NCBI GenBank assembly: GCA_965205845.1
Contig: CBDBIG010000003.1
Span: 20,453-84,452, forward strand
Origin: a bacterium
GTDB lineage: Bacteria; SAR324; JACQKK01
Direction: 5' to 3'
Length of the DNA stretch: 64,000 nucleotides
Made by a program: the position numbers and the translations under genes. Of this stretch, positions 411 to 27,804 are shown in pieces (within the stretch, counting starts at the first letter, position 1; each line of letters starts with the position of its first letter). The notes under the pieces were generated by a model. The model was not told where the DNA came from. It worked only from the letters and a program-made list of their open reading frames with translations, and ran no database searches.

Positions 411-1443
411 TCATTCGCTAACTCCTCCCCGCTCGGAATAAGCGGTTTTAAGGTGGCTTAGGCTAAGGGCCTGCCGTGCCCCGTTTGCCGCCAGGCTGGC
501 CAAGCGTAGGGTTTTGGTAACCTCACGCAGTGCGCCGTGGCCGTGACCAATTTTGATTAAAAAGCCAAGGGCTTTCTGCTCGCTTACTCCCCATGCTTGG
601 GCAATGGCCTCTACATCGGCACGGCGGGCTTTTTTGGGGTTTAACACCTTGCCAACGCGGCTAAACAACTGGGCATACTCTGCCGAGCGCGGGCCGCTCA
701 TCCGGGTGTAGACGCTCTCGTTGCCCATGAACACCAGGGCGCAAGCAGTGGCATCGTGCAAAGCGCGTAGGCATTCCAAGGCGGGGCGGGTAAGGTGCTG
801 TGCCTCGTCTATAATCAGCAGGGCGTCTTTTTTTGAGAGATAGGCTGAGAAGCATGCGGTAAACCACATCTCCCCCGCGTCCGTCCGCGCGCTGGCTTGG
901 GGCAAGGGCAAACAAAAGGGCTTTAAGGCAGGCAGGGGCGCTGGCAAAACTGGGCACCATTGTGCACACCCAGCAATTAGGGCGGGTTTGGGCGTAGTGC
1001 TGGGCGGTGATGGTTTTGCCAACCCCTGCGCCACCGCACACCACCGCGATGTCGCGGCTTAGGTGGGCGTAGGCAATGGCCATGCCGATTTGGCGGGCTG
1101 TGGGGGTTTCTATCCAGTCTGCGCCCTTGCTGGGCAAAAAGGCGGTTTGGCAGGCTTGGTCTTCTAGCCATTGGCAAACCTTGGCTTCAAGGGCGGCGTT
1201 ATCGCCCGTGTACTTGCCGTTAAGCCAGCGCGAAAGCGCTGTTGCCCCGCACCCAATCCGCTTGGCCGCATCGGCTTGGGACAGGCACTGCTCGGTTAAG
1301 ACCGTCTGTAGCCCCGACCGCAAAATTGACGCCTGATTGCTCGCCTCGGCGGCGGGCAATGGGGACTTTGCTAACGGGGTGAGTGGTGGCTGATCGCCCT
1401 CTTGCACCACCTGTAAACTAGGGGTTGCCTTTGCTTGGTGCAT
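411..1443 (-). pseudogene. MuB-like AAA+ transposition ATPase, split across two overlapping frames (single frameshift near 900-1030)
   Basis: The N-terminal HTH plus Walker A (VVCGGAGVGKT) lies in ORF 661-1443. Walker B (LLIIDEAQHL) and the C-terminus lie in ORF 411-1034 in another frame. Confidence 0.6.
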
Positions 1444-1541
1444 GTTTTATACTCCATGTATTGTGTTGGTTGGCGGGGCTCTATGCCCCGCGGTTTAAGC
1501 CCTGCTACGGTTCTTGGCTGTCCGTGTGGGGCTTTTTGGTT

Positions 1542-3480
1542 TTAAAAGCCCTCCACCTGGCGCTGTGCTTCCATTTGTTTAAGGGCGTTTTCCAGCCCCC
1601 TGTTAAAGTTCTCTCTCTCCTCTTGGCTTACCTCTTCGTCTGACTTGCGCTGGGCAAACACCCCCGTGATGATTTTGGACGTGTGCTCCTCGGCTGGGGG
1701 CGCGCCCGTGCTAAGCCCCGCCGCCACCTCGGCCGCACTTAGGGTGCGCTGGGCGGCCAGTTCTTCTTTGGTGGCTTTTTTGTGCTGTTTTTGCGCCTTG
1801 GCATGGGCCCTGGCGGCGGCTTGATCGGTATACCCAATCGCGGCAATACAAGGCGCAAAGCACACCAGACGCCCATCGGGGGTTTCAACCTGCACGCCAT
1901 CGCGCGGGGCGTCGGGGTCAAAGCGCACCGTGAGATGCTTGCCGGCGTAGGGGGCTAGTTTTTTGTGCCAGAAACGGTTGCCCAAAATCCTAACGCTGGC
2001 ATCGTCGCGGTGAGCCAACACCTTCTCGGCTGCCATCAAAAAGGCGCGCTGCTGCTGGGGTGTGGCTTTGGTGATTGGGGCTTGGGCGTAGCTCTGGTTG
2101 TAAACCGCATCAAAACTGCGCCCGTTGCACACGCCCCCGGTGCGCCCCGTTTGGGCATTGTGCAAGGCAATTTGCCGGTTTGCGTGGGTCCGAAAGGCTT
2201 CAATCTCAATCGCCTTGCTGGCATAGTTCTCGGGCTTGGCGCTGGGGCTGTTGCCCGTGTAGGCGCCCGCGCAAAAGGGGTGCTTTGCAATGCTTTCACA
2301 CAGGTCTTTAAAGGCGCGTTCAATGGGCTTTGATTGGCCATGATAGGGCATTGCCCAGTGGATTTTGCAGCCCAAAGCCGTGAGCAAACCTTGGGGTTCT
2401 TCTGCCTTGATTTTAAAGCGAAAGCGGTTTTTAGCCCCGCCCGTTAGCCACTTGCTAGCAAAGGCGCGCCCGTTGTCGAGCAGCACGGCTTGGGGCACGC
2501 CGTGGTTTTTAAGCAGGTCGGCAAAAGCTAAACGCACCAACAAGGTGCTCTCGTTTAAGCCAATCCGCCAAGCCACAATTTTGCCCCTCGTAAACATCCT
2601 GCAAGGCAAGCAACATGGGGCGCACGGGCTTTTTTTGCCCTGGCCACTTGGTAAAAACATCAAAGCGGTGACCATCGCCGCAAACCAAGGCCAGCGCAAA
2701 AAGGTCTTTTGCGGTGCGCTCTTGGGCGGGGTAGGTGTTTTCTAATGCCCCTTCGCCGCGCCTTGCTAGCATAATCGTAGGGCGTGACACCTCGCGCTTT
2801 AGCCTGCGGGTAAGGGTTTTTAAACTGGGCAGTTGCCAGTCGTTTTGGGCGGCTGCCTGTTGCAAGCGGCGGTAGCAAGCCGTGGCGCTGGGGCGTTCGG
2901 GGCGCAAATAGTCGCTTTTGTAGATACTCCAAGCCTCAAGGGTGCCATTGGCCGTTTGTTGCCCGCCGCCGTGGCTGGGCGCAAGCATCGGAAGCCAGTC
3001 GGTGATTGGGTAGGAACGCACCCGCTCAAGCCAACGGAACACGGTTTTACGGTCGGGGGCTGCCCCCTGTTTTTGCAGGGCTGCGATGGCTTGGTTGCGG
3101 GTTAAGCCGTTGCTCTCCAGTGCAAGCAGGGCCATTAAAACCGCCATGCGCTTGTGGCCTTGTTTTTGCTGGCTCCCAGGCAAACGGCCAAACGCATCCC
3201 AACGCTGAATTGAAGAAGAGGATGCGCCATCCTTGGCGCGTTTCATGGCCTGCTTGCCCTCCTTTGTGTGGGTTGTATACCAGCGCATTGCCAATGCCGC
3301 CTGAACTGCCCTGGGCAGGCTGCCAAAATGGTATTCCTTGCCGCCGCCACAGCCTATGGGTGAACGTGAGAGTGACTGAAAACGCCAGGCTTCTTTGTCG
3401 GCCATGCGGCGTATTACGCGTTCATTTATTGACAAACCCGCCACACCGACCAATTCTTGTGCGCTGTACCATTGTTGCAT
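1542..3480 (-). pseudogene. MuA-like DDE transposase, split across two frames (frameshift within 2509-2699; may be an authentic pseudogene or a sequencing error in a T-homopolymer)
   Basis: The N-terminus (MQQWYSAQELVGVAGL) is an MuA-type DNA-binding domain. The first catalytic Asp region (CGDGHRFDVF) is in ORF 2509-3534. The DNGRAF second-Asp region and the remaining core are in ORF 1542-2699. Confidence 0.6.
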
Positions 3481-3697
3481 GCTGCTGTATCCTTTTTTAT
3501 ACAAACAATTCGCCCGTCTGCGAGTTTCGCCCATCGTTTAGGCCAGATTTCCCAAAGTGGAACTTGAATAATTTTTGTTGCGCAGTTAAATTTTACCGTT
3601 TTTCGCAAATAAGATACTGATGTCTTTGTTTTTGTTAATTTTTTACGCATCTATCAATGGATAGATTGTTGCGTACTTCTTTGCACAGTTTGGAGGG

Positions 3698-3997
3698 TTA
3701 AGTACGCAATGCGGGGGTCGTGATTTCCCTCTTGTTTTTAACGAACTCAAGCTCGTATTTCACGACAACCTTGATTTCTTTGAGAGCGCAATCCAGACAT
3801 GCGGGGGTCGTGATTTCCCTCTTGTTTTTAACGAACCCAAGCTTGTATTCCACGACAGCCTTTGCGGTGGCAGTCTCAAAATTGCCGTTCTCATCTTCAA
3901 AACCCTCGGTAATCTCATAATTGTGGTCCGCATTGGGGAAGAGTTCCTGCCCGCATTTGCAGTGGGTGCTTGTGGTTTGTTGTGTTTTTAGTGCCAT
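3698..3997 (-). CDS. hypothetical small protein between ner and A, with an internal ~24-aa duplication encoded by an imperfect 63-bp direct repeat (3708-3770 and 3795-3857)
   Basis: The ORF is on the same strand as ner and A. The repeat is visible in both DNA and protein. No family was recognised. Confidence 0.3.
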   Translation of the reverse strand: MALKTQQTTSTHCKCGQELFPNADHNYEITEGFEDENGNFETATAKAVVEYKLGFVKNKREITTPACLDCALKEIKVVVKYELEFVKNKREITTPALRT

Positions 3998-4314
3998 TTG
4001 GTAATGCGTCCTTGTTGGTTTGTGTTATGCCCTTGTTTCATCATGCTCCAAGCCAGCCTTTTCTTGCGGATGCCCGTGCCCATTGGCGAACCGTCCGCCT
4101 TGTAACGGCTGGGCCAAATCACCTGCGGGTGCACCCCTATAATATCGGCAATCGTTTTTTCTAAATCCGGCCAGCGCTGGATTTTGACGCGACAGCAAAC
4201 GCAGGCGTAGGAATAGCCTTTTTCTTTTGAAATCCTGGTAAGGGTGTAGCCCTTTTTTGCCAAGGCTGCCCTAACGTCCATCCAATGCCAGTCTTGGGAG
4301 GTATTTGTGTCCAT
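3988..4314 (-). CDS. ner: Ner-like DNA-binding regulator with a ~30-aa C-terminal extension
   Basis: DWHWMDVRAALAKKGYTLTRISKEKGY ... RWPDLEKTIADIIGVHPQVIWPSRY aligns with Mu Ner (DWHRADVIAGLKKRKLSLSALSRQFGY ... HWPKGEQIIANALETKPEVIWPSRY). Confidence 0.8.
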   Translation of the reverse strand: MDTNTSQDWHWMDVRAALAKKGYTLTRISKEKGYSYACVCCRVKIQRWPDLEKTIADIIGVHPQVIWPSRYKADGSPMGTGIRKKRLAWSMMKQGHNTNQQGRITKWH

Positions 4315-4505
4315 GACGCCTTTTTTGATATAATTTTTAGAAAGCGGTTTTTTAAACTAAAAATACAATAGCATTAGCGTTTAAAAAAATGCAATAGCAA
4401 ATTTGTTTTTTTTTTGAGTCCGAGTTCATATTTATTTTTAAAACCACACAAGGCAATGGAAATCCTTTGTTTATAGGGGCTAAGGACGGTTATACAGGTG
4501 AAAAT
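4315..4505. promoter_or_regulatory. divergent ner/c promoter-operator region, AT-rich, with repeated caatagca motifs and the DR0 copy gagtccgagtt (4416-4426)
   Basis: Intergenic region between divergent ner and c. Repeats are 21 bp apart. AGGTGA RBS sits 6 nt upstream of the ATG at 4506. Confidence 0.5.
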
Positions 4506-5609
4506 ATGAGTCCGAGTTTGGGTCCGAGTTCGAGTAGTAAACTCGGACACTTTATCAAAAGGCTCCGTCTGCTTATGCAAGGACAGACTGAAAAGTCTTT
4601 CTCTACCCAAGTAGGACTTCATCAAGCCACATTTAGGCGATATTTAGACGGCAGCGAACCATCCAGGAAATCTTTAATTGCTATTGCAAATGGGGCTAAT
4701 GTCACCATTCAATGGCTGGCCACTGGTGAGGGCCCGATGCGCCCTGTTGAAAGCCTGATGTACCCCGAGGATGAAAGCCTTGAGGAGGATATCGCGCGGA
4801 TGGAGGCGAAAATGGCCCGGGAGGATGCGGAGTCGCTTCGAAAAACGGGCAAGCCTAAGGTTTGGCGGTCGTCCGATGTGGAGATGGATGAAGGGACCGC
4901 GCTGATGATCAGGGTGCATTTAGCGGAAAACAGCCGCCTGAGCAAAGAAAACGAGGCCCTGAGGGCCGCGGGCTTTGGTGGGGGGCCGGCCCCGTCCCTT
5001 GCCTTGGAGCAGGAAATTGCGGAGTTGAAGCGCAGAATTGAAGCGCAACAAAACCTGCTGAACGACACCCATTCGATGAGGAATGATTTCGACGCCAAAA
5101 GGCGGGAAATTGAATTGCTTAAAGAGATGGCCGCGCTTAAGCAACTGGTTAAACAGCCCCCGCCCCCGCCTACCACAAGCGGTATTGCCAACATGACCCT
5201 GCTGGGCTTGGCGGAATGCGGGCTGGTGGGTTGGCAGCAAAAAAGGCCCTTAAGCGTAAAAGCGAACTGCCCCGCCGATATGAACCCCGCAGAAGACTTT
5301 GCGGTGATGGCCACGGGACACAGTCTGTTTTACGCGGGGATTGAGCCTGGCTTTATCTGTTTTTGCGCGCCTAAAAGCGAGGCACAGGTGGGGGATGTGG
5401 TGTTTGTGCTAAAGCCGAACAACCTTGCCAGTTTGGGATTGGTGAAAGAATTAAAGCGCAAAGAAGGGGGAGTAGAATGGCTGGTGCTCCAAAAATGGGA
5501 CGACCCCGACCCCAAAACGGGGGAGCGAAAACCTTACACCCTGAAAGAAAACATGGACGAAATAGAACAGGTTGTGCCCGTGATTTATGTGCAACGCAGG
5601 GCGGTTTAG
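4506..5609 (+). CDS. prophage repressor (CI/Mu c-like): N-terminal HTH_XRE, central coiled-coil, C-terminal S24/LexA-like domain
   Basis: QTEKSFSTQVGLHQATFRRYLDG is an HTH. The C-terminus (VMATGHSLFYAGIEPGF...VGDVVFVLKPNN...LVKELK) has a LexA-like fold. The gene is divergent from ner. The ATG at 4506 has a good RBS; the ORF track starts earlier at a TTG (4467). Confidence 0.7.
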   Translation: MSPSLGPSSSSKLGHFIKRLRLLMQGQTEKSFSTQVGLHQATFRRYLDGSEPSRKSLIAIANGANVTIQWLATGEGPMRPVESLMYPEDESLEEDIARMEAKMAREDAESLRKTGKPKVWRSSDVEMDEGTALMIRVHLAENSRLSKENEALRAAGFGGGPAPSLALEQEIAELKRRIEAQQNLLNDTHSMRNDFDAKRREIELLKEMAALKQLVKQPPPPPTTSGIANMTLLGLAECGLVGWQQKRPLSVKANCPADMNPAEDFAVMATGHSLFYAGIEPGFICFCAPKSEAQVGDVVFVLKPNNLASLGLVKELKRKEGGVEWLVLQKWDDPDPKTGERKPYTLKENMDEIEQVVPVIYVQRRAV

Positions 5610-7640
5610 AAAAAAAGGAGTTTAAAGCTAGATTATTTTTTATTTTTGAGCCAATCGCGCAAAAGCCTTTATAAAACAAGGGCTTGATCCATGAAAAGGG
5701 CGAAAAATTGAGTTTAAAGCTGAGTTTAAAGCTAGAGCACCTAGCTTTAAACTTTTGCGGGGTGGTTTTGGGGGTTTGTGCTAAAGCCGAACAGCCTTGC
5801 CCGTTTGGGATTGGTGAAAGAATTAAAGCGCAAAGAAGGGGGAGTAGAATGGCTGGTGCTCCAAAAATGGGACGACCCCGACCCCAAAACGGGGGAGCGA
5901 AAACCTTACACCCTGAAAGAAAACATGGACGAAATAGAACAGGTTGTGCCCGTGATTTATGTGCAACCCAGGGCGGTTTAAAAAAAAAGGAGTTACAAGC
6001 TAGATTATTTTTTATTTTTAGGCCAACCGCACAAAAGCCTTTATAAAACAAGGGCTTGATCCATAAAAAGGGCGAAAAATTGAGTTACAAGCTGAGTTAC
6101 AAGCTAGAGTGCCCAGCTTGTAACTTTTGCGGGGTGGTTTTGGGGGTTTGTGCTAAAGCCGAACAGCCTTGCCCGTTTGGGATTGGTGAAAGAATGGAGG
6201 CACAAAGAAGGGGGGCAACCTGGCTGGTGCTCCAAAAATGGGACGACCCCAACCCCAAAACGGGCGAGCGAAAACCCTACACCTTGCAAGAGAACATGGA
6301 CGAAATAGAACAGGTTGTGCCCGTGATTTATGTGCAACCCAGGGCGGTTTAAAAAAAAAGGAGTTCACAGTTCAATTATTTTTTATTTTTGAGCCAACCG
6401 CACAAAAGCCTTTATAAAACAAGGGCTTGATCCATAAAAAGGGCGAAAAATTGAGTTCAAAGCTGAGTTCAAAGCTAGAGTGCCTAGCTTTGAACTTTTA
6501 CGGGGTGGTTTTGGGGGTTTGTGCTAAAGCCGAACAGCCTTGCCCGTTTGGGATTGGTGAAAGAATGGAGGCACAAAGAAGGGGGGCAACCTGGCTGGTG
6601 CTCCAAAAATGGGACGACCCCAACCCCAAAACGGGCGAGCGAAAACCCTACACCTTGCAAGAGAACATGGACGAAATAGAACAGGTTGTGCCCGTGATTT
6701 ACGTGCAACCCAGGGCGGTTTAAAAAAAAAGGAGTTCAAAGCTAGATTATTTTTTATTTTTAGGCCAACCGCACAAAAGCCTTTATAAAACAAGGGCTTG
6801 ATCCATGAAAAGGGCGAAAAATTGAGTTCACAGTTCAGTTCACAGTTCGAGCGCTGAACTGTGAACTTTTGCGGGGTGGTTTTGGGGGTTTGTGCTAAAG
6901 CCGAACAACCTTGCCCGTTTGGGATTGGTGAAAGAATGGAGGCGCAAAGAAGGGGGGGCAACCTGGCTGGTGCTCCAAAAATGGGACGACCCCAACCCCA
7001 AAACGGGGGAGCGAAAACCCTACACCTTGCAAGAGAACATGGACGAAATAGAACAGGTTGTGCCCGTGATTTATGTGCAACCCAGGGCGGTTTAAAAAAA
7101 AGGATGTTATTTTTGATTCGTAAAAAACTATTTTTGATATTAACTATGTTGTTGATTTAAAAATAGAAATTTTCTTTACATGGATTCGTAAATAGATTCG
7201 TAAAAAACTATGGAATAACGAATCGTGAAGTGCCGAACTCCGACCTTTTGCGGGGTGGTTTTGGGGGTTTGTGCTAAAGCCGAACAGCCTTGCCCGTTTG
7301 GGACTGGTGAAAGAATGGAGGCGCAAAGAAGGGGGGGCACAATGGCTGGTGCTCCAAAAATGGGACGACCCCGACCCCAAAACGGGGGAGCGAAAACCTT
7401 ACACCTTGCAAGAGAACATGGACGAAATAGAACAGGTTGTGCCCGTGATTTACGTGCAACCCAGGGCGGTTTAAAAAAAAAGGAGTTCAAAGCTAGATTA
7501 TTTTTTATTTTTAGGCCAATCGCGAAAAAGTATTTTCAAAACAAGGGTTTGATCCATGAAAAGGGCGAAAAATTGAGTTCAAAGCTGAGTTCAAAGCTAG
7601 AGCACCTAGCTTTGAACTTTTACGGGGTGGTTTTGGGGGT
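5402..7640. repeat. tandem array of six ~371-bp units (unit starts ~5402, 5775, 6146, 6517, 6888, 7267; last partial unit to 7640). Each unit is a c-leader-like module plus a copy of the last ~200 bp of the c gene
   Basis: The C-terminal 67 codons of c recur in ORFs 5778-5981, 6056-6352, 6427-6723, 6892-7095 and 7271-7474. The intervening ~170 bp is homologous to the c 5' leader. Confidence 0.9.
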
Positions 7641-7759
7641 TTGGTTTTACGCTTCAAACGCATTATTCCTTAGAAATTTCACAAAATCGCTACATTGTTG
7701 GCACCACTTTACGGTCACACTGGGGTAAAAAAACCTAGCGTGGGTAAGGTGGGTGGCAC

Positions 7760-8143
7760 ATGCGAGATATAGCGTTGTTTTTACTGGCTTTTATAACATT
7801 AAGCCTTGTATTTGCAGAGATTTGGTTAAGCCAAAACCGCTCTTTAAGGGTGTTTAAGGCGCACATAGTCGGTTGTTATGATGGCAACACCTGCAGGTTT
7901 ACCCTGCCCAGTCACCACCCCATTTTAGGCGAGGGGGTTCAGGTGCAAATTGTGGGGTTGCAAACGCCAAAACTACGCGAACCCACCTTAAGCAAGGCCA
8001 GCAGCGCGCGCGATGCCATGCGTGGCCTGCTTGAACGCGCCGATGATATTTTTTTAGTAAACACAAAGCGCAAAAACCGCAGCCTGCACGCCAGCGTATG
8101 CGCAAATGGCAAAGACATGGCAAAGACGCGCCAAATGGCTTAG
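7760..8143 (+). CDS. secreted thermonuclease (SNase)-like protein
   Basis: N-terminal signal/TM. VGCYDGNTCRF and VQIVGLQTPKL resemble the SNase V.DGDT and R..G.D.PE motifs. Confidence 0.45.
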   Translation: MRDIALFLLAFITLSLVFAEIWLSQNRSLRVFKAHIVGCYDGNTCRFTLPSHHPILGEGVQVQIVGLQTPKLREPTLSKASSARDAMRGLLERADDIFLVNTKRKNRSLHASVCANGKDMAKTRQMA

Positions 8144-8261: not shown

Positions 8262-8315
8262 GTTGCCCCAGTTGCCCCAGTTGCCCCAGTTGCCCCAGTT
8301 GCCCCAGTTGCGCCA
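8262..8315. repeat. 9-bp microsatellite (GTTGCCCCA) x5 plus one variant copy
   Basis: Direct reading. Encodes (PQL)n or (WGN)n depending on strand. Confidence 0.9.
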
Positions 8316-8825: not shown

Positions 8826-8862
8826 GTTGAAAAACCACATAAAACCACATAAAACCACATAA
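8826..8862. repeat. 10-bp tandem repeat (aaaaccacat) x3.5
   Basis: Direct reading. Confidence 0.85.
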
Positions 8863-9509
8863 AACCATAATTTTTCGACCAGTGTAAAAGCAAGTGTCCG
8901 GGCACAGCGGGCACGCTTTCTTAAAAAACACCACTGCCGTCAAAGGCGTAACAGCGGCAAGCCACGGCAAACAGGCATCCTTGAACGCTTTGTTTTAGCA
9001 CCTTTGCGCCGTACGCATTGCCCTCCACCCTAAGCAACTGCAAAGGGGGAGGGCGTGTGGGCGAGTGCTTTTGCAAGGGGTTTTGGGCTCAAATGGGCAA
9101 GGGGCAGGTACCCAGGGCTGTTTTTGTTGCCAGTTTGTTGCCAATAAAATGCTCTAAAATATGCAGTTTCCACCTGTTTCCTATTCATTTTTTTCGATAA
9201 GTAATTGTTTTTATTAGAAACAAGCACGACAAGGTTTGCTTGTTTAGACTAACTTATACAGACTCTTTCTCATGCTTGCCGTGATAACCCCAAAGTTGGT
9301 TGTCATACGAACAGCCTCAAAATCTTTTCTTAACTGATCTCTTTTAACCCACAATGTAAACGTTTACACCGGGAGAATAAAAATTTTGCATTGCTCAGCC
9401 AAAATACGTTATCGTGGGGGCAAGTTTCGCTGTACACTATTTTTATAAAGTGCAAGGGGTGTTGCTCTGTGAACCCGCACTTTAACCATAAAAGAAAGCT
9501 TTTTCTTCC

Positions 9510-16160: not shown

Positions 16161-16361
16161 AGGCAACGCGACCTTGGCACGAAATCGGGCTACCAAGAGA
16201 TACCTTCGGTGTGGATCACGAGGCAGGGTATGTTTGCGCAACACGCTAAAAACTTGTCTAAAAGCGGATGGCACGCCATGCCTAAAAATATAGCATAAGA
16301 AAGTCTGCGCCTATTTTAACGGACAGCAAGCGACAACACCATTTTTGAGCGTGTCAGTAAG

Positions 16362-16772
16362 TGGAGGCGGCGGGAGTCGAACCCGCGTCCTAATGGTGGT
16401 GAACTAAACGTTACTACAGGCTTAGCGACGTTTTGCGTTTAACAATGAGGATGTTGAAGCCGTCGCGGTCTCACCTCATGCGAGTTTGCCCTAGGAATTC
16501 GCCCAAAACACCAGCAAACCACTGTGCATAGGCTAGCACCATAAATGACACGGAAAAAGCGCTTATCGTGCGTGGGCACCTCCGCGGTCCAGCCCCTAAA
16601 TTAATAGGGGTGTAAGCACTCTGCTAAACCGCAATTAAGCGGCGAGGGCTACTGGAGCGTAGTTGCTGTTATTGGCATCTACGTGTGTGAACGATTTTTT
16701 ACGTGGCCCTTCGCTCAACCACGGCCTGCTCGCCTAATATCTCCTTCCACAGTCGAATGCCATAACGCCCCC
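16362..16772 (-). ncRNA. ssrA: tmRNA (ssrA), standard one-piece; predicted tag peptide ANNSNYAPVALAA
   Basis: 5' GGGGGCG...GCATTCGAC and 3' GGACGCGGGTTCGACTCCCGCCGCCTCCA form a tRNA-Ala-like acceptor with G3:U70. The 3' domain aligns with E. coli ssrA. The resume frame is GCC AAT AAC AGC AAC TAC GCT CCA GTA GCC CTC GCC GCT TAA. Confidence 0.8.
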
Positions 16773-27705: not shown

Positions 27706-27804
27706 TGGCGGAGATGCGTGGGAATCGAACCCACCCAAAGCGGTATCAGCGCCCTGCACACGGGTTTGAAGCCCGGGAAGCCCACCAGTGACTCATCCAT
27801 CTCC
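27706..27804 (-). tRNA. selC: tRNA with anticodon UCA and a ~26-nt variable arm; candidate tRNA-Sec (selC) or UGA-reading tRNA-Ser derivative
   Basis: Anticodon loop CUUCAAA is identical to the E. coli selC loop. Discriminator G73, encoded CCA, 99 nt. The D-arm is not canonical 6/4. Confidence 0.55.

Follow-up and report, generated by a model that had tools for sequence, protein, structure and literature searches.

In phage P4 the seqB segment of the CI RNA pairs with seqA and seqC, and the c4 RNA of phages P1 and P7 pairs with its targets. The operator of the Mu Ner protein consists of two tandem 12-bp repeats that overlap Pc/Pe. Transposable phages of the D3112/DMS3 type carry their repressor gene leftmost, transcribed towards attL and divergent from ner-A-B, and the same arrangement is found at the locus analysed here, where a tandem array that begins within the 3' end of the repressor gene c occupies the left end of a decaying, defective Mu-like prophage in a 64,000-nt stretch of bacterial DNA (hereafter, the window). 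A MuA-type DDE transposase, a MuB ATPase and a Ner-like regulator are all recognizable, in the order c <- -> ner A B (Table 1). The Pfam domains of the transposase (HTH_Tnp_Mu_1, HTH_Tnp_Mu_2, DDE_2 and Mu-transpos_C) are spread over two ORFs, and a tblastn comparison with the transposase of a related phage (L050) passes successively through frames -2, -3, -1 and -3. The MuB-like gene is likewise divided between an ORF at 661-1443, with the HTH and the first half of AAA_22, and another at 411-1034, with the second half of AAA_22 and Phage-MuB_C. The prophage is considered defective because both genes are frameshifted. The window's host genes form long ORFs, and those that were scanned gave family matches over the whole length; a tmRNA tag (ANNSNYAPVALAA) and BamA identify the host as a diderm bacterium and nothing narrower, and a scan of genome contigs with the thiolase encoded nearby reached no more than 65% identity, to various MAGs. 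Related phages end in ...TTTTGCACA, where their flanks diverge, and the left terminus of the prophage is presumed to lie at 7719, its right end falling outside the window.

The product of c has an XRE-type HTH and a coiled-coil linker, followed by a C-terminal domain that is specific to the family and bears a weak resemblance to S24 (24.0 bits against Pfam S24, with a cut-off of 23.3). Autocleaving repressors of the LexA/lambda-CI type have a conserved Ser-Lys dyad; here the Ser of the G(H/Q)SL motif is nearly invariant, but the Lys that can be aligned by eye to LexA K156 is an Arg in most relatives. A PDB profile search returned no sequence match for this C-terminal domain, for which the AlphaFold2 model has pLDDT values below 50; the only PDB profile matches of c are HTH domains of the XRE/434-CI/P22-C2 type. 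Among 22 homologues the N-terminus is variable and the C-terminus conserved. The N-terminal HTH is about 40% identical to those of the DMS3, MP22 and JBD c proteins, and tblastn matches c genes of the DMS3 type and not that of Mu. By homology, then, c is an XRE/434-CI-type repressor with a DMS3 c-like N-terminus, and not a homologue of Mu Rep, which has a winged-helix DNA-binding domain related to domain I-alpha of MuA. The CAATAGCA octamer of its candidate operators also occurs repeatedly in the intergenic regions of L050 and L051, which share this type of c DNA-binding domain.

Tandem Repeats Finder reports a single array at this locus, with a period of 371, 6.0 copies, 87% matches, 1% indels and a score of 3262. 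The anchor sequence GTTTGTGCTAAAGCCGAAC recurs at 5402, 5774, 6146, 6517, 6888 and 7267, which sets the successive periods at 372, 372, 371, 371, 379 and 372 bp. Each period consists of 207-208 bp copied from the c 3' end (native in C0, extra in C1-C5) and a 164-171 bp spacer (S1-S6). A preliminary description of the locus had counted six units; the copy number stands, but the count takes in the native end of c, and the real tally is five extra C-terminal fragments and six spacers. The same description read each unit as a copy of c with codons 16-300 deleted, and this reading fails, for related phages carry a single native module 3' of c and no fragment beyond it. The unit is instead a c tail joined to the native downstream module, since the GCGGGGTGGTTTTGGGGGTTTG that follows the hairpin is the native module-attL junction, as in S6. 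The latter is presumably the original module, and junctions of its type between module and flank are also encoded in P0027, P0031, P0032 and P0033, which belong to other assemblies or prophages.

Table 1. Features of the prophage left end and of the array, in window coordinates.
Feature	Position	Strand	Remarks
MuB-like pseudogene	411..1443	-	One frameshift divides it into two overlapping ORFs
MuA-like transposase pseudogene	1542..3534	-	At least three frameshifts
ner-like gene (HTH_35)	3988..4314	-	Intact, divergent from c; Pfam PF13693, E = 1.6e-18
Candidate c operators (two direct CAATAGCA copies)	4366..4399	+	ner-c intergenic region; copies at 4366 and 4392
c-leader repeat-hairpin module	4416..4550	+	Distal GAGTCCGAGTT at 4416; tandem copies at 4508 and 4520; inverted copy at 4540
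Repressor gene c	4506..5609	+	Intact ORF, 367 aa from ATG
Tandem array	5402..7643	+	Period 371-372 bp, 6.0 copies
C0	5402..5609	+	Native last 68 codons of c, first repeat copy
S1 module	5610..5773	+	Motif GAGTTTAAAGC: distal 5618; tandem 5710 and 5722; inverted 5744
C1 fragment	5774..5981	+	Four mismatches vs C0; R364P; open 67-aa ORF; identical to P0034
S2 module	5982..6145	+	Motif GAGTTACAAGC: 5990, 6082 and 6094; inverted 6116
C2 fragment	6146..6352	+	G-run 1 bp shorter, frameshifted vs c; 3' part of 98-aa ORF 6056-6352
S3 module	6353..6516	+	Distal AGTTCACAGTT (6362), S4 type; tandem GAGTTCAAAGC 6453 and 6465; inverted GAGTTCAAAGC 6487
C3 fragment	6517..6723	+	One mismatch vs C2; within 98-aa ORF 6427-6723
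S4 module	6724..6887	+	Distal GAGTTCAAAGC (6732), S3 type; tandem AGTTCACAGTT 6825 and 6837; inverted AGTTCACAGTT 6857
C4 fragment	6888..7095	+	Open 67-aa ORF; R364P
S5 module	7096..7266	+	Different allele; motif GATTCGTAAA: 7115, 7183 and 7195; inverted 7218; distal spacing 68 bp
C5 fragment	7267..7474	+	Open 67-aa ORF; R364P; like the C-terminus of another c allele (P0029, P0037)
S6	7475..7643	+	Terminal module; motif GAGTTCAAAGC: 7483, 7575 and 7587; inverted 7609; ends in GTTTG, the repeat end
Presumed attL (prophage left end)	7644..7719	+	Proposed terminus ...GGTCACA at 7719, read from sequence

The module spans some 165-190 bp and has a characteristic layout, in which a distal copy of an 8-13 bp motif is followed after about 92 bp by two tandem copies with a 12-bp period, a short loop, an inverted copy and a T-run, the inverted and tandem copies forming a hairpin of 9-14 bp. 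Spacers and c leader share this repeat geometry (92, 12 and 18-24 bp), which recurs in the leader of c in the window as well as in L050 and L054. In the window leader, GTCCGAGTT occurs exactly three times in direct and once in inverted orientation, with spacings of 92, 12 and 18 bp and a predicted 9-bp stem. Judged against dinucleotide shuffles, the similarity of the spacers to the window c leader is weak (z of 5-8 for S2-S4 and of about 2 for S1 and S6, with S5 showing no signal). A profile assembled from related downstream modules, on the other hand, gives collinear matches to six c leaders (E = 4e-7 to 6e-3). On the strength of the identical geometry and of these profile matches, sequence comparison confirms the downstream module as a paralogue of the c promoter/leader region. 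The relationship between spacer and leader put forward in the preliminary description is thus upheld, as are the start contexts it gave (gaaaatATGAGTCC for c, gaaaaatTGAGTT for the spacers, where TTG takes the place of ATG).

All usable relatives of c come from one ENA sample, and within it the association of module and repressor gene is constant. Each of the 11 c homologues identified in eight related contigs has exactly one C-terminal region and, on the stretch from c to the left phage end, one module whose elements are spaced by 91-92 (or 68), 12 and 18-23 bp, and none is followed by a C-terminal fragment 3' of the module. The module is hence always present downstream of c in this Mu-like family, and sometimes also in the c leader. 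A scan for its geometry gave seven matches in the window and none in 1.5 Mb of unrelated loci; the ten genuine matches in relatives are all c leaders or c-downstream modules, and they were accompanied by one reverse-strand echo of the L001 palindrome. Beyond this family, protein-pattern scans of public genome, viral and metagenome contig collections yielded no relative of c, blastn against 50,697 phage records was empty, and no record was found for P0001, P0002 or the 98-aa ORF of the window. Neither the module nor the array appears in the left 2.5 kb of Mu, DMS3 and a Vibrio Mu-like phage, from which the present phages also differ in their family-specific C-terminal domain, and a literature search brought up no account of an array or module of this kind. 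The earlier claim that the feature is foreign to known Mu-like phages agrees with these searches.

Our best guess is that the module combines the terminator of c with a vestigial c-type promoter. The hairpin and T-run would act as the intrinsic terminator of c, and the leader-like part would be a second, geneless c-type promoter giving rise to a transcript of about 55-60 nt, from near GAAAAATTGAG to the T-run. The motif would be a fast-evolving determinant constrained to agree with its own other copies in each module. In the relatives, stems of 8-13 bp are followed by T5-T7. The stems of the window modules are 13-14 bp long (-15 to -20 kcal/mol), but only T4 follows and a terminator consensus scan did not list them, and no sigma-70-like promoter was found in 3900-7900, a region that includes the c leader and the modules; both observations count against the proposed roles.

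The finding that the leader-like module is native to the 3' side of c in all relatives, with no fragment beyond, bears directly on the idea that the units are mini-repressors, that is, internally deleted copies of c that express dominant C-terminal fragments (acting on repressor stability or oligomerisation) or serve as decoy operators. Every spacer aligns to the promoter, RBS and start of c, TTG standing in for ATG, which would accord with this idea, and so would the open 67-aa ORFs kept by C1, C4 and C5, a dN/dS below 1 and the two 98-aa ORFs of units 2 and 3, one of which is retained elsewhere as P0026. Both of the latter exist as described, but only their last 44 codons are in the frame of c; upstream of these the fragment follows a different frame, and the c frame is regained through the G-run that is 1 bp shorter. 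This indel alone rescues units 2 and 3, and the frame leading from the leader-like spacer into the fragment differs among units, unit 1 being out of frame for 120 aa. Moreover, R364P, which alters a residue invariant across the c family, is present in each of the five extra copies, which argues against the expression of functional fragments. A decoy for the resident repressor fares no better, for the units lack both the leader motif GTCCGAGTT and the candidate operators CAATAGCA, the nearest approach being one inverted copy of the leader motif with one mismatch in S5 (7236-7244). Finally, the analogy with Mu, where C-terminal alterations act dominantly on ClpXP-mediated degradation of the repressor, does not carry over, since c is not a Mu Rep homologue and the ClpXP/vir precedent is not transferable. 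Altogether, we regard a mini-repressor function as very unlikely.

Array-derived ORFs, each with its own variants, were found in three or four assemblies. One of them (P0026, in an assembly with a 707-kb contig) is an exact chimera in which the N-terminus of unit 2 is joined to unit 3, the crossover sitting between the two 12-bp tandem copies, and fragment variants match other c alleles of the same genomes (P0002, P0029 and P0037). The chimera supports the unequal crossing-over that had been suggested as a route of decay. These ORFs indicate that the array is not an assembly artefact and that its copy number varies, as in other copy-number-variable tandem repeats. Repeats of about 370 bp are admittedly difficult to assemble, and the G5, G6 and G7 runs that distinguish the units resemble homopolymer errors. 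Nonetheless, the units differ by 1-20 substitutions and bear distinct motif alleles, one spacer is wholly different, other assemblies hold array ORFs with variants of their own and a recombinant unit, and the full-length host genes speak against widespread homopolymer error. That the repeat was mis-expanded or mis-collapsed is consequently extremely improbable, and the array can be taken as real.

We favour, with a probability of roughly 60%, an origin of the array by recombination at the left end of the defective prophage, with the C-terminal fragments as passengers. The three junction sequences share GTTTG within a G/T-rich stretch. An illegitimate crossover between the GTTTG in codon 299 of c and that lying just past the module would have duplicated a 372-bp segment, consisting of the last 68 codons of c and the module. 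Later unequal crossing-over would have raised the number of extra units to five, and the units would have become mosaic as pieces were traded with c alleles and modules of other origin within the same host population. On this account the array is probably non-adaptive. Some observations sit uneasily with fragments that are mere passengers. The dN/dS between C fragments is 0.3-0.55 and not close to 1, a value that may have been inherited from functional c alleles and that leaves neutrality unproven. The array or parts of it persist in three or four assemblies, and c remains intact (99% identity). Furthermore, the concerted motif changes over three to four copies per unit suggest selection or a homogenising mechanism.

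A rival possibility is that the array is adaptive and multi-allelic, the module being a self-specified specificity determinant whose alleles are maintained to interfere with, or resist, heteroimmune Mu-like phages, either as an RNA in which the inverted arm would base-pair with the sense copies or as the site of a hypervariable DNA-binding protein. The motif is indeed hypervariable, with at least 11 types among phages, and yet it matches itself within a module (three direct copies and one inverted) under a fixed geometry. The units of the array vary chiefly in the motif columns: C2 and C3 show one difference in 207 positions and S2 and S3 show 16 in 164, mostly within motif copies, and variable columns make up 22 of 53 in the motif copies against 12 of 106 elsewhere (Fisher p = 2.6e-5). 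A self-contained nucleic-acid code would also fit the absence of covariation between motif type and the types of the c DNA-binding domain, Ner or the MuA I-alpha/N-terminus, as illustrated by L050 and L052, which share a Ner type and have different downstream motifs, and by the window and L050, which share a leader motif and have different Ner sequences. Many heteroimmune relatives co-occur, since individual genomes carry several c alleles and a single metagenome contains 20 c types, and array ORFs recur in several assemblies. No module motif, however, matches the leaders or modules of other phages or the remaining phage sequence searched. The self-match itself is imperfect, as the distal copies of S3 and S4 have been swapped and in the terminal modules of other strains, too, distal and proximal copies do not match. 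In addition, no relative has more than one module, the prophage is defective, no promoter was detected, and a search of Rfam with E values up to 5 returned only a chance miRNA match. An adaptive array is hence unlikely in our view. As to the source of the repeated motif, duplication of the 5' hairpin arm in the manner of a transposon target site is also unlikely, given that every lineage has its three direct copies at conserved spacing. With respect to a diversity-generating retroelement (VR/TR), no reverse-transcriptase gene was found among the few ORFs scanned. Silent cassettes of the pilS kind, acting as donors to the c 3' end, were a further candidate considered.

A recombination scar thus remains the simplest description of the array, and the broader finding is a hypervariable, self-matching module that flanks c in a family of Mu-like phages. 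The motif outpaces its surroundings and is untied to any linked DNA-binding protein, a pattern otherwise seen in RNA-based immunity. As in the P4 CI and P1/P7 c4 systems, sense copies and one complementary copy lie in one putative immunity-region transcript and change in concert among heteroimmune relatives. The order is different, though, with three sense copies followed by the antisense one, which here is locked in a terminator-like hairpin, and the present case has neither a target outside the module in the phage sequence searched nor an Rfam match. That the module might be a new self-coded, RNA-based or RNA-guided specificity element, and the array an allele library against heteroimmune relatives, is a reading we consider quite unlikely. 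Were it nonetheless to hold, it would add a second, repressor-independent layer of immunity to transposable phages, and the array would amount to a natural experiment in the stacking of specificities. Otherwise, the locus clearly exemplifies the exchange of parts of immunity regions among heteroimmune prophages of one host population. The 12-bp-period tandem repeats at the start of c, beside a ner homologue, also recall the Mu Ner operator, but here the motif type is independent of the Ner type and the main copy of the module lies 3' of c and not at the divergent promoters. With VNTR or minisatellite-like bacterial arrays, the locus shares head-to-tail units, a founder junction of short homology (GTTTG), mosaic units and changes in copy number. 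It departs from them in that the unit is half coding (a repressor tail) and half structured regulatory module, and in that its units carry alleles of a self-matching motif rather than the products of random drift.

The window holds one tandem array (6.0 copies, period 371 and 87% matches in Tandem Repeats Finder) within a Mu-like prophage. The anchor GTTTGTGCTAAAGCCGAAC is found at 5402, 5774, 6146, 6517, 6888 and 7267, and a tblastn search with the last 69 residues of the repressor gene c recovers six out of six C-terminal copies in the window, confirming the array reported in the preliminary description. Each period joins a 207-208 bp copy of the c 3' end (C0 to C5) to a spacer of 164-171 bp (S1 to S6). 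The count of six units therefore holds for copies of the c end, but the first, C0, belongs to c itself, which leaves five extra fragments. The start contexts, with the ATG of c replaced by TTG in the spacers, were found as described. The two 98-aa ORFs also exist, but they follow the c frame only in their last 44 codons, after a G-run that is a base short in C2 and C3 has brought them back into it. This G-run comprises 5, 6 or 7 bases and determines the reading frame of each fragment, the 98-aa ORFs arising from G6 in C2 and C3; in the fragments it could be prone to slippage.

Features of the window, in window coordinates
Feature	Position	Strand	Remarks
MuA and MuB frame changes	411-3534		MuA domains HTH_Tnp_Mu_1/2, DDE_2, Mu-transpos_C, then MuB; after ner-like gene
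99-aa ORF	3698-3997	-	between ner and A; internal duplication (EYKLGFVKNKREITTPA x2); CxC...CxxC residues; no match in Pfam search
ner-like gene			HTH_35; divergent from c
CAATAGCA repeats	4366-4373, 4392-4399; 4679-4686	third copy -	first two in ner-c intergenic region
c	4506-5609	+	repressor gene
Array	5402-7643		
G-run	5465-5470		equivalents in C1-C5
Hairpin and T-run (TGGGGTCGGGGTCGTCCCA TTTTT)	5496-5514	-	within WDDPDPK codons, opposite c; equivalent site in every unit
GCCTTT-N7-AAAGGC	5663-5685		
127-aa ORF	7760-8143		adjoins prophage end; staphylococcal-type nuclease likeness by eye, no Pfam match
GTTGCCCCA x6, AAAACCACAT x3.7	8262-8315, 8831-8867		short tandem repeats just outside presumed prophage end
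tmRNA	16361-16772		tag ANNSNYAPVALAA
tRNA-Sec	27706-27804		

The reading of these units as c genes with internal codons deleted does not stand up to comparison with 11 c genes on eight related contigs, all from one ENA metagenome. A single repeat-hairpin module lies directly 3' of c in all of them, followed by conserved left-end sequence, and extra C-terminal fragments are absent from all 11. Because a single module follows c in every relative, the array unit is identified as the c tail plus its native downstream module. The junctions agree: GTTTG inside a G/T-rich stretch is present at position 5402 within c, at every boundary between units and where S6 ends, and S6 runs into the presumed left prophage end (attL), not into c. 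The earlier interpretation is hence right in part. In the relatives, the module consists of a distal motif, a spacer of 91-92 bp (68 in one instance), two motifs in tandem with a period of exactly 12 bp, then, 18-23 bp further along, an inverted motif, and a T5-T7 run; its motifs are unrelated from phage to phage (ACTGCCAAGTT, AGTTCCATGTT, AGTTTAAGTGA, GACCAGCG, TACCAGCG, GACCAATGT). A geometry scan matched only c leaders and c-downstream modules, plus one reverse-strand echo of a palindrome in the related contig L001; the geometry was absent from 1.5 Mb of unrelated loci and from the remainder of the window, and no Rfam family matched the module. In another of these contigs (L048, 68-3035), two converging c genes of different immunity types each have their own module and left end, and the left ends lie about 140 bp apart, implying two Mu-like prophages that abut left end to left end.

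The proposed homology between spacers and c leader is upheld. The spacers resemble the leader in the window weakly (z is 5-8 in S2-S4 and about 2 in S1 and S6, with no similarity in S5), and the case rests on identical repeat architecture and collinear profile matches. The leader carries GTCCGAGTT three times in direct orientation, at 4418, 4510 and 4522, and once inverted, at 4540, with intervals of 92, 12 and 18 bp; for GAGTTNNNAGC in S1, S2 and S6 the intervals are 92, 12 and about 22 bp. A profile of the downstream modules matches the leaders of six c genes, collinearly and on the same strand as c, with E values from 4e-7 to 6e-3; the weakest match is to the leader in the window. Leaders and modules also have in common a conserved imperfect palindrome, GCCTTT-N7-AAAGGC, some 25-45 bp ahead of the tandem motifs (in contig L053, at about 5960-5985), which may be the site of a conserved factor or part of a promoter.

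Since the relatives have no terminator-like structure other than the hairpin and T-run between c and attL, we infer that these terminate c, while the leader-like part of the module would constitute a geneless c-type promoter yielding a short transcript; a sigma-70 consensus was undetectable, c's own promoter included. The minus-strand hairpin inside the c end would halt antisense transcription that runs into c from the left end. As to what reads the motif, the GACCAGCG module is common to four different c DNA-binding domains, contigs L050 and L052 have the same Ner type with different motifs, and L051 has the c DNA-binding domain type of the window, yet no leader module. MuA I-alpha types do not track motif types, and no motif copies were found outside their own module in the available phage sequence. 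CAATAGCA, repeated also in L050 and L051, both with the window's c DNA-binding domain type, is a better candidate operator than the leader motif.

C2 and C3 are identical but for 1 of 207 positions, against 16 differences in 164 positions between S2 and S3, mostly in motif copies; over S1-S4 and S6, variable columns amount to 22/53 in motifs versus 12/106 elsewhere (p = 2.6e-5). Distal copies are swapped between S3 and S4, and S5 is a different allele that includes a near-copy of the c-leader inverted arm. The main rival explanation, which we consider unlikely, would see here an adaptive stack of module alleles serving as specificity elements. R364P is common to all extra fragments, at a residue invariant in the family. 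The dN/dS values between fragments, 0.3-0.55, are consistent with differences that came from functional c alleles; c alleles in the same genomes (proteins P0002, P0029 and P0037) have C-termini matching features of C2-C5. Array-derived ORFs in the protein database come from contigs of 707, 771 and 878 kb, with P0024, P0031 and P0034 tying the window to the 878-kb genome. P0026, from the 707-kb assembly, follows unit 2 to the first tandem 12-mer and then unit 3, and is, judging by this junction, an unequal crossover in 12-bp register, a process the preliminary description had allowed for. Mosaic units, together with variants and a chimera in other assemblies, show the array to be real, polymorphic and reshaped by recombination. 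Beyond the window, the 878-kb contig has one more c fragment, of 109 aa and likewise ending in QPRAV, and an ORF that crosses a different c allele in an alternative frame (P0036 and P0030), indicating additional c-derived remnants elsewhere in the same genome.

At least three frame changes interrupt MuA and one interrupts MuB, making pseudogenes of both transposition genes, whereas host genes elsewhere in the window are long ORFs and those scanned match their families over full length. Hence, the element looks like a defective prophage retaining its immunity genes, with c and ner intact. The most likely account of the array is a tandem amplification without adaptive value, in a prophage undergoing decay (probability roughly 0.6).

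The module itself appears to be undescribed and a more interesting object than the array; Mu, DMS3 and a Vibrio Mu-like phage differ in being without its geometry. The c family is small (22 proteins), with a hypervariable N-terminal domain and 150 almost invariant C-terminal residues; the likeness of the C-terminal domain to S24 is marginal, and modelling was unsuccessful. The comparison initially drawn with the Mu repressor does not apply, as c is not homologous to Mu Rep and instead has an XRE/434-CI-type HTH at its N-terminus, with about 40% identity to that of the c proteins of DMS3 and MP22.
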